Shown piece after piece: positions 15,001 to 18,000 of a stretch of DNA of 27,295 nt. The DNA is from a virus. Each line of letters begins with the position of its first letter. Positions within the stretch are counted from its first letter, which is position 1. The stretch lies in UHGV virus genome UHGV-0068847. One strand, 5' to 3'. The position numbers are program-made.

Positions 15001-18000
15001 GTTATTTGTCTAATGAAGGTATGAATACTTTTGTGCAATTGTTATTCGTATCCAATCATCAGGATCCTGACGGCACATACCATGGGGTATTTCCAGATAC
15101 CAAGGTTGGTATAAGTATGACTGAATACCTATACCAAAAAACTTGCTCATCATCAGAGAAGGCTAAGTCATTAAAACCAACCTGGTTGCATTGGCGACAA
15201 CAGGAAGCTCTGGAGCTAAAACGAAATCCCTTTGATATTTAAATTTGAGATTTACCAGCCCTGGCATTCGCCGGGGCTTTTTTATTTCAGGCTCACGGGA
15301 ATCATCCACGATACATATTGTTGATAAATCCAGCCCGTGAAGCCTGACCCTTTCATCACACAGCGCCATCCGAATAATCGGAGGTAGGGCTATGACCAGA
15401 ATGAGCACCATTTACAGCAGACTTTCATATGGATCAGGAACCACGCTTGCCGGCTGCGGTGTATCAGCGAAGGCATATGCCGAAACAGCTAAAACAGCAA
15501 AAGAGGTGTCCTGGATGTTGGCCGACAGAATTGCAGGGTTAAGCCTGAGCGACTGGGCAATTATTGTCGGTATCGCATGCACAGTTATCACTTGTGCAGT
15601 GAACTGGTATTTCCGCTGGAAAGAACGGGAGGATCGGCGCAATGGCTATGCCACCAAAGCTGAAGAATAAACTGAGCGCAGCGGTCGTTGGTTTGATTCT
15701 TGCGGGGGCTTCCGCGCCCGTGATTCTCGATCAGTTTCTGGATGAGAAAGAGGGTAACAGCCTGACAGCATATCGCGACGGCGGCGGAATCTGGACTATT
15801 TGCCGTGGCGCCACGATGGTTGATGGTAAGCCAGTAGTTCAGGGCATGAAGCTGTCTGCTGAGAAATGCGCCAAGGTGAACGCCATAGAACGCGACAAGG
15901 CGCTGGCGTGGGTTGAGCGAAATATCAAAGTACCACTGACCGAACCACAGAAAGCGGGTATTGCGTCATTTTGTCCTTACAACATCGGCCCCGGAAAATG
16001 TTTCCCTTCTACGTTCTATAAGCGCATTAACGCTGGTGACCGTAAAGGCGCCTGTGAAGCGATCCGCTGGTGGATTAAAGACGGCGGCCGCGACTGTCGT
16101 CTGACCAAAGGCCAGAAAAATGGGTGCTATGGGCAGGTCGAGCGGCGCGATCAAGAAAGTGCGCTGACGTGCTGGGGGATTGACCGGTGAGTCGACTAAC
16201 AAACATCATCATTACTGTGATCATCTGCATAATCTTATCTCTAGGCTGGGCCGTTAACCACTACCGCGACAACGCGATCACCTACAAAGACCAACGCAAC
16301 AAAGCAACTGAAAAGCTCAGCCTAGCTAACGTTACTATCACCGACATGCAAACCCGCCAGCGCGATGTCGCTGCACTGGATGCCAAATATACGAAGGAGT
16401 TAGCTGATGCGAAAAACACCATTAGCGGTCTACGTGGCGATGTTGAGTCTGGGCGCAAGCAGCTGCGCGTTGCAGCCGCCTGCAATAAAGTGCGTCAAAC
16501 CACCGACACCGCCAGCATGGATGATGCAACCGGCCCCAGACTTACTGACACCGCTCAACGGGATTATTTCACTCTCAGAGAGCGAATAGAAACTGTCACC
16601 AAGCAACTTGCCGGATTACAAGAATATGTCAGTGCGCAGAATTTAAAATGACTTGTCACCTATTTCGCTGTCTGATTAGTTATTCAATATTAGTTGGCAT
16701 AGCGTTAGTAATTAACTGCAATGGCTATGACTGCAATTAATTATGGCATCAGCTTTGCTTGATGAGGATGATGGATATTTTTCGGATAAGAATTTCTGTA
16801 TGTCTTCAACAGCTTCGATGCTGACTCTAATATTTGTATGGCCATTGTTTTTTAAATAATTAACTGCTTCATCTATAAGGTTGTTTTCTGATAGAAATTT
16901 GATAACAATGGCAAAGTTATCAACGCCGGTTTCGGTTAAAAGTTCACAGTTAGGCATGGTTGTTACTCCAGTGATGTAAATGAGATTTTATTTTGGATTG
17001 TTTTTTTATCAGCGTGGGTGATATGTTTGTATGATTTTTGAGGTTGCCTAAACACAAAAGTTGTATTCAAAGTAATCGAGCTAATTAGGGTGGGCCGCTG
17101 GTTTGGTAAGGTCAGGGGATTAACTCTTATTCTATTACCTTTCTGCGTTGCCATAACCATGGGCAGACCCATCGTAATGGTAGTTTTTGAATAGGCCGCT
17201 AATGAATTCATGGCGCATGGTTTTGGGAGGCGATTTGCAAGCAGGCATCTCGGACTTGTATCGCAAGACGAAGCCCTTCCTGAAATCTTGCTGATGCGTT
17301 GGGATCGTTTGCTGAATTTAGATAGACATTAAAAAGCTGCATGATGGTAACGCTATATGCTTGCTTAATAGCATTTTCAGTAATTGTTTCGTCCATCGAG
17401 AATCTCCTCGGTAGCATAGATGACAGGTTTACTTCCGTCTTACCATAGGTCATCAATGGGATTACTTTAATAGGAAAGAAGCATGAGCAAGCCGGACTGG
17501 GAGGTCATCGGGGCGGCGTACTGTGCCGGAGTGATGGCCCTCCGTGAAATTACATCGCAGCACGACATTAGTGAAGGGACAATGCAGAACCATACTAACT
17601 ACTGAGTGAGTGAAACAGACAATATCATCGGTAAGGATGATGGCAATAGCCCCCGACTTACTGACGCCGCTAAACGGGATTATTTCACCCTCAGAGAGCG
17701 AATCAGCACCATCACCGGGCAAGTGAGTTACTTACAGGATTACATCAGGCAGCAATGTTTGAAGTGAATGGCCGCTAGACTTAGCCAGCCATTTTAAAGA
17801 GTTAACCAACGGTTAATGTGGAAAGCAAATGCGAAGTTTCCCCAGAGCAGTTAACAGTGGTTTCGTTGTAAGGGAATTCACCCGTATACTCGCTATTTGC
17901 AGGGGGAGTCATTTTGTTAATCAATGCAGCTTCTGCGCGCACCCGATCATCTTTTCCAGTAATAGTAGCGACGGAATAGCAGAGAGTCTCACCGACCATT

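Follow-up and report, generated by a model that had tools for sequence, protein, structure and literature searches.

Layout of the lysis-to-packaging block

The DNA analysed here, called the window throughout, is the whole 27,295-nucleotide (nt) sequence of the UHGV virus genome UHGV-0068847, which is a lambdoid prophage of the Citrobacter freundii complex. Between its lysis gene pair Rz/Rz1 and its packaging genes lies a block with three small open reading frames (ORFs) of 62, 82 and 81 amino acids (aa), all on the minus strand. Holin, lysozyme and Rz/Rz1 precede the block, and Nu1 (19493-20038) and a GpA-type large terminase follow it. The Pfam labels used here were taken from locus L003, which is identical to the window across the holin-to-terminase stretch. 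A first-pass annotation had described the block as AT-rich cargo running opposite to late transcription, and both the strand and the GC profile (0.34-0.40 over 16600-17200 vs. 0.50-0.55 in the lysis genes) agree with this. Its placement in the gap between Rz/Rz1 and the packaging genes also holds, and the same slot holds variable cargo in related prophages.

Reading the window directly, we found the three ORFs and their signals where they had been described. The Shine-Dalgarno (SD) sequence GAGGAG of the 62-aa ORF (17409-17404) lies 7 nt upstream of its ATG, the ATG of the 82-aa ORF overlaps the stop codon of the 62-aa ORF as ATGA, and the SD (GGAG) of the 81-aa ORF overlaps the final codons and the stop of the 82-aa ORF. 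Coordinates of the three frames and of the slot's left border are:

16187-16651, plus strand: Rz, intact, the left border of the cargo slot (the identical gene in L003 has a Pfam Phage_lysis match)
16407-16589: Rz1, embedded in Rz
16712-16957, minus strand: 81-aa ORF, stop included
16963-17211, minus strand: 82-aa ORF, judged most likely non-coding
17208-17396, minus strand: 62-aa gene, stop included (ATG 17396-17394, stop TGA 17210-17208)

The first-pass annotation joined the three ORFs into one operon. We think it likely that the block is instead a composite scar at the lysis-to-packaging junction, in which two small minus-strand genes, independent of each other, lie on either side of one spurious ORF. 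In DNA as AT-rich as this, the length of an ORF is poor evidence: an ORF of at least 81 aa arises in 12% of composition-matched shuffles of 16652-17210.

The 62-aa gene as a one-gene unit in relatives

A nucleotide comparison of the window with 30 fetched loci (referred to below by L numbers) gave a different picture from that of a block moving as a whole between Rz and terS. Outside the Citrobacter freundii complex, homology to the window is limited to 17148-17577, and every relative breaks off at 17147/17148, just downstream of the 62-aa gene. Four elements make up the shared unit: ~15-32 codons from the 5' end of a terS-like gene, the 86 bp that separate it from the divergent 62-aa gene, that gene itself and ~60 nt of downstream sequence with a hairpin. 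Its elements in the window are:

17151-17180, minus strand: conserved hairpin 3' of the 62-aa gene, weakened in the window
17397-17482, minus strand: conserved 86-bp region between the 62-aa gene and a terS stub, from the alignment with relatives
17404-17409, minus strand: SD sequence GAGGAG of the 62-aa gene
17442-17447 and 17465-17470, minus strand: promoter-like site, TTAAAG (17465-17470) and TATGGT (17442-17447) separated by 17 nt

The 62-aa gene was met in at least 10 contexts that lack the 81-aa ORF, in prophages of Citrobacter, Klebsiella, Enterobacter and Buttiauxella with at least three head-module types, and the very allele of the window is found without the 81-aa ORF in L031. The unit lies in the lysis-to-packaging gap, antisense to the late genes, across at least four packaging modules, and a homologue with 58% identity still retains this location and strand. 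In two clades (L006-9 and L013-16) the 62-aa gene is divergent from a gene for a 200-aa terS-like protein. A remote 66-aa, 40%-identical member (P0016) is likewise divergent from a gene for a 172-aa terS homologue, which is 40% identical to the 200-aa terS.

The signals around the gene are also shared. A TAnnnT -10 element is found at the same position in all relatives, including the 58%-identical L018, and the aligned promoter-like site of L006, TTAAAA-17-TATATT, matches the sigma-70 consensus at 9/12 positions. In the relatives the conserved hairpin is followed by a second one, rich in GC and flanked by runs of A and T; the terminator scan made a call on the late strand in L006 and L023, and in L023 also on the strand of the 62-aa gene itself. 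The folding energy of hairpin plus terminator in L006 is -32.8 kcal/mol (z = -5.5), and that of the 3' hairpin in the window -14.8 kcal/mol (z = -2.2). No terminator-like site was found by the scan in 16652-17400 of the window. No double compensatory change was seen in the alignment of the 3' hairpin, which has too little variation for a test of covariation.

As relatives have a promoter-like site, an ORF and a terminator, the native form is a one-gene unit, and judged by these sequence features it matches the textbook definition of a moron. The end of the unit, with the conserved hairpin plus a variable GC-rich one, was noted at 5215-5275 in L006 and at 3253-3272 in L023, with equivalents in L013, L014, L017 and L022. 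The variable GC-rich hairpin has its canonical T-run on the late-gene strand, which puts an intrinsic terminator immediately ahead of terS, where it would act on late-direction transcription that is unmodified.

A rare family of predicted helical-hairpin proteins

By its pattern of conservation the 62-aa ORF is a real protein-coding gene of a rare unnamed family. The ratio of nonsynonymous to synonymous changes (pN/pS) against relatives is 0.2-0.4, substitutions are in excess at the third codon position (e.g., 16/16/38), and a length of 62-66 aa is kept among homologues down to 34-43% identity. The ORF and its SD are intact in all but one of the copies seen, across many genomes. Small in size, the protein is slightly acidic and predicted to be soluble, and one cysteine is conserved. 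It is predicted to form a two-helix hairpin, the AlphaFold2 model placing the helices at residues 7-26 and 34-59 with a predicted local distance difference test score (pLDDT) of 89. A TTG-extended 82-aa version of the gene was dropped: a 1-nt upstream deletion breaks the extension in relatives, and homologues have a length of 62 aa.

Its close relatives fall into about a dozen clusters with 82-96% identity, from Citrobacter, Klebsiella variicola, Enterobacter bugandensis, Buttiauxella and a number of metagenome bins. When 1.84 billion 50%-identity representatives were searched exhaustively with a profile, there were ten matches with an expectation value (E) of at most 0.001, eight of them 62-66 aa long and two of them long proteins that match only in short repeated stretches. 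Collection scans found the family in only one species-representative genome, two viral contigs and three metagenome contigs. With so few members in these scans and among the 1.84 billion representatives, the family is rare. One 63-aa member (E = 1.4e-11) lies at 4001-4192 of L021 in a non-phage chromosomal context, where it overlaps the start of a Peptidase_M32 gene beside an MFS transporter.

The middle reading frame

The 82-aa ORF is most likely an untranslated spacer that chances to be open, as judged from its sequence in the related loci. Disrupted ORFs in relatives, which the first-pass annotation had named as a sign against its operon, were seen at the start of this frame: relatives carry -2 or -1 indels within the first ~21 codons, the part that falls in the conserved 3' region of the unit, and meet a stop after 29-35 codons. 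The more divergent Citrobacter-group copies L032 and L033 have two indel events each in the spacer, and in L032 the ATG has become TTG by changes that are synonymous for the 62-aa gene. All six scorable substitutions in the frame (L032 and L033) alter the amino acid, and G makes up 13% of first codon positions. The predicted product returned only itself in searches. Gene callers predicted the ORF in one of five loci, and in NCBI C. braakii records the 81-aa and 62-aa genes carry the successive locus tags ACTM7X_16830 and _16835, which implies that nothing is annotated between them. The ATGA overlap follows of necessity from the Ala-Pro-stop with which the 62-aa gene ends, and synonymous changes abolish it in L032.

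The 496-bp segment and the 81-aa ORF

The DNA to the left of the breakpoint is of a different kind, and it includes the following features:

16652-17147, no strand assigned: 496-bp AT-rich segment standing in place of the 62-aa gene's terminator, seen in no prophages but those of the Citrobacter freundii complex
16709-16743, no strand assigned: inverted repeat with arms of 12 nt at 16709-16720 and 16732-16743, 92% complementary
16985-17012, minus strand: candidate promoter CTGATA-16-TAAAAT, ~28 nt upstream of the 81-aa ATG, with 9/12 matches

Near and distant searches with the DNA of the block gave no match in 5,426 E. coli genomes, 50,697 phage records or 72,556 plasmids, and a repeat scan saw neither terminal inverted repeats nor target duplications at the edges of the 496-bp segment.

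On sequence grounds the 81-aa ORF is probably a real orphan gene. Hypothetical proteins of the Citrobacter freundii complex match its product at 100% identity, and the product forms a single 90% cluster among 5.8 billion proteins, whose members are all named Citrobacter except for one bin labelled Hafnia. Compared with L032 and L033 the ORF has 1.2% substitutions and no indels, whereas the adjacent spacer has 3-5% substitutions plus indels; its divergence is three to four times below that of its flanks. The nonsynonymous to synonymous counts against the same two loci are 2:3. Codon periodicity is strong and coding-like, with G at only 2% of third positions, and a GGAG lies 8 nt upstream of the ATG. 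Promoter-like sites such as the one at 16985-17012 are as numerous in the region as expected from shuffles, so that site is no more than a candidate. Within Citrobacter, the ORF is always found beside the 62-aa gene, in eight distinct contexts, and the lysis cassette, the 81-aa ORF and the 62-aa gene travel together within this group into prophages with lambda-like or HK97-like terminases. Some 100 Citrobacter contigs have the block, and a few of these copies were read here.

The inverted repeat had been taken to close the block. Its 12-nt arms are present, one base away from where they had been placed, and the repeat falls within the final ten codons and the stop of the 81-aa ORF, so inside the 3' end of the frame and not beyond it. 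As a terminator it was rejected, having no U-run and a fold of -13.8 kcal/mol (z = -1.6).

A nested recombination scar to the right of the 62-aa gene

Two gene fragments follow the 86-bp region, and together (17483-17767) they form what is, from the sequence, a nested recombination scar:

17483-17605, plus strand: terS-like stub of 40 codons, of a helix-turn-helix protein type, the native divergent neighbour of the 62-aa gene
17605-17767, plus strand: second, truncated Rz/Rz1 tail, whose translation resembles the Rz C-terminus

Over 35 aa the stub shares 71% identity with the N-terminal part of the 200-aa protein encoded beside the 62-aa gene in L006 and L013, and its nucleotide homology to relatives stops at ~17577. 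The second Rz tail is also seen as a direct repeat, 16489-16606 vs. 17605-17722, with 75% identity. Given a second Rz tail and a terS stub, two phages must have recombined here. The viral contigs L022 and L023 have the same scar (17148-17747, 92-94% identity) yet retain the terminator, and the 496 bp at 16652-17147 are therefore a later replacement that is limited to the Citrobacter group.

Searches for function

The first-pass annotation could assign no motif to the products, and profile searches with Pfam, PHROG, NCBIfam and PADLOC agreed, giving nothing significant for the three ORFs. The 81-aa product had the best library match of the three, to phrog_18434, a family of unknown function (E = 0.006). 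None of the PADLOC-DB v2 defence profiles matched any of the three at E up to 1, and no toxin or antitoxin family was found for them in Pfam, NCBIfam or PADLOC; nor did any product match a regulator family in the profile libraries. With the 62-aa and 81-aa products as tblastn queries, nothing was found in the 50,697 phage records and nothing in the 72,556 plasmids except for one chance-level match of the 81-aa product to unannotated Streptomyces DNA (E = 0.009). PDB sequence searches with the protein and two profiles gave only chance-level matches. The fold search of the 62-aa model against PDB and BFVD returned generic helical hairpins only, all with E above 0.8, and that of the 81-aa model, which is poor, returned nothing from PDB. 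Rfam 15 had nothing at gathering score over the window and nothing at E up to 1 over 16500-17700. The literature search found only general background on morons.

Origin of the block and alternative explanations

Taken together, the locus is a mosaic junction of the ordinary kind. Its two small genes are unrelated to each other and uncharacterised, and one belongs to a family that is rare yet can be defined. The native unit would have consisted of a sigma-70-like promoter, a strong ribosome binding site, the 62-aa ORF, a hairpin and then a bidirectional terminator; in many cases a 200-aa terS lies divergently beside it. We infer a cross between a phage with the order lysis genes, 62-aa gene, 200-aa terS and a phage with the order Rz, other cargo, Nu1. 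Recombination within terS and within the Rz gene would have put the 62-aa gene into a phage with Nu1/GpA packaging, leaving behind the 40-codon stub and the second Rz tail. Later, in one Citrobacter lineage, the terminator would have been exchanged for the 496 bp with the 81-aa orphan ORF and possibly its own promoter. With the terminator lost, transcripts of the 62-aa gene could run into the 81-aa ORF. Our best guess for function, going by these sequence features, is that the two are independently expressed accessory genes. As to how they might act, we can offer only a tentative picture: both small proteins would be cytoplasmic and expressed independently of the late operon, and the 62-aa hairpin would pair into a helical bundle and bind another protein as a small modulator, rather than being an enzyme, a toxin or a DNA binder.

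Several observations weigh against this account. The promoter-like site upstream of the 62-aa gene in the window matches the consensus at only 7/12 positions, is below the scan threshold and was missed by the scan. The 3' hairpin is weakened, the second hairpin is absent and the terminator has been replaced at 17147/17148. In the window's clade the 62-aa gene has nonsynonymous and synonymous changes in a ratio of 4:1, vs. 3:11 in the other clades (Fisher p = 0.038, with very small numbers). The one copy that is not intact, P0004 of C. cronae (129 aa), has the 62-aa gene fused to downstream sequence by an apparent frameshift. Because of the 4:1 counts, the weaker promoter match, the weakened hairpin with the lost terminator, and the fused copy, the 62-aa gene may be decaying in this clade. 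For the 81-aa ORF, AlphaFold2 with the single sequence gave a poor model (pLDDT 62, four helices), and sequence diversity is almost nil, which leaves the selection test low-powered alongside the 12% rate of chance ORFs. No Citrobacter-group copy has the 82-aa frame closed, and in two of them paired indels restore it, which is mild evidence for coding. Finally, the predicted hairpin fold matches nothing specific, so the idea of a binding modulator would be a generic one.

Much of this would also fit a block of inert debris, in which the 62-aa gene came along with the terS stub as an orphaned remnant and the 81-aa ORF is open by chance in AT-rich filler. Scars on both sides, the weakened promoter and hairpin, the missing terminator, the 4:1 counts, the fused variant and the chance-ORF rate all point that way. 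We nevertheless consider debris unlikely, as the 62-aa ORF and its SD have stayed intact nearly everywhere, the four replacements in the window's clade are conservative (N to S, N to K, R to K and L to M), and the 81-aa ORF combines reduced divergence and zero indels with strong codon periodicity. The single lysogen-expressed operon of the first-pass annotation, be it a toxin-antitoxin, an exclusion or defence module or a regulatory cassette, would explain the tight packing, the ATGA overlap and the SD overlapping a stop, and it draws support from the lack of a terminator between the ORFs in the window and from the constant adjoining of the 81-aa ORF to the 62-aa gene in the eight Citrobacter contexts. 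However, in most contexts the 62-aa gene stands alone with a terminator directly after it, the middle ORF fails the conservation tests, the ATGA is dictated by the end of the 62-aa gene and is lost in L032, and none of the profile libraries has a family for any of the three products; an operon thus seems very improbable. The suggested non-coding RNA over 16963-17211, or a functional 3' untranslated region there, fares just as badly. The hairpin after the 62-aa stop (17151-17180) is conserved in all relatives and is the only part to stand out, but Rfam has no match at either threshold, the fold of the whole region is unremarkable (z = -0.99), no compensatory double changes are seen, the sequence past the hairpin is lineage-specific with indels, and in relatives the hairpin is merely part of a two-hairpin transcript end.

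The linkage to terS allows a further explanation, in which the 62-aa protein works together with the 200-aa terS family, for instance as a modulator of packaging or of the terminase, and has been separated from this partner in the window. The divergent pairs in the L006-9 and L013-16 clades and in the remote pair with the 172-aa homologue speak for it, as does the fact that the 5' end of a 200-aa-type terS is always within the conserved unit. We hold such a partnership to be rather improbable, since the gene is intact beside other genes and terminases (Nu1/GpA, Terminase_4/TerL and Terminase_2), one member is in a non-phage chromosomal context, and the 86-bp spacing alone would explain the linkage. 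A broader form of the idea, which we rate as slightly less probable still, would make the hairpin family a dedicated small factor of the lysis-to-packaging junction or a new single-protein exclusion factor. Such a factor might modulate the 200-aa terS, e.g., in packaging control or in countering satellites that hijack terS, with the gene outliving the exchange of terS. If a functional link to terS were true, the protein would be a new small player in the control of phage packaging.

Comparison with known systems

In lambda, the lipoprotein gene bor lies between Rz and cos on the opposite strand and is expressed in lysogens. The block shares this slot and the orientation relative to late transcription. 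It differs in having no sequence similarity to bor (no Pfam match for any product), and the 62-aa and 81-aa products are without signal peptide, lipobox or membrane helix and are predicted to be soluble and helical. The 63-aa Rop/Rom protein of ColE1 has a helix-loop-helix structure, and its dimer is a four-helix bundle that binds RNA. The 62-aa product is of similar size and is predicted to form a single antiparallel two-helix hairpin, a resemblance in shape only; no Rop match was obtained in the Pfam and PDB sequence searches, and no Rop entry is among the fold matches shown.

Type II toxin-antitoxin systems likewise consist of small neighbouring ORFs whose start and stop signals overlap, carried on a mobile element. 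The ORFs of the block are not co-conserved, the 62-aa gene being normally solitary and found without the 81-aa and 82-aa ORFs in the contexts listed above, and no family match was found, so neither such a module nor a defence or regulatory one is supported. With the false three-gene operon, the false lead to a toxin-antitoxin or defence system is removed as well.

Morons of lambdoid phages were defined in comparisons of HK97 and HK022, and the term has been applied to P22-like phages (PMC2629481). The 62-aa unit resembles them in having a promoter-like site, an ORF and a terminator, in being present or absent between otherwise adjacent genes, in lying antisense, and in its deviant base composition (GC 0.34-0.44 vs. 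0.50-0.55 in the lysis genes). Unlike a typical moron, the unit in the window has no terminator of its own and is joined by a second orphan ORF; characterised morons have known functions, and the 62-aa product has none. The locus is a clear case of an accessory gene losing its terminator and acquiring a downstream orphan ORF, and the comparison defines a rare unnamed family of 62-66-aa helical-hairpin proteins with a conserved position and a partly conserved divergent pairing with one terS family. As it stands, this matters little: it is a further instance of orphan cargo and scars in the most mosaic junction of lambdoid prophages.

Other cargo in and near the slot

The cargo between Rz and the packaging genes varies among related prophages, and the 62-aa unit is one of its alternatives. 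Very diverse cargo was seen at L001 4041-5303, L006 5529-5762, L014 5684-6229, L017 4310-5050 and L031 3311-3742. Relatives have there, for example, ORFs of 204, 183 and 77 aa, a KilA-N protein, a GvpU-like protein and a 246-aa ORF that appears trypsin-like by eye.

In the window, a 141-aa ORF at 17802-18227 (minus strand) has sub-threshold matches to GIY-YIG nucleases (Pfam E = 0.0019, a PHROG endonuclease E = 0.004, PADLOC PDC-S14 E = 1.3e-4) and may be a further cargo gene in the slot. Immediately upstream of Nu1, in DNA of 33-36% GC, a 167-aa ORF at 18648-19151 (plus strand) matches phrog_17948 (E = 7e-21, function unknown) and has a hydrophobic N-terminus by eye. A further AT-rich patch lies upstream of the holin gene at 14800-15250 (GC 0.37-0.39) and contains a 101-aa ORF at 14937-15242; other small genes occupy this position in related Citrobacter loci.

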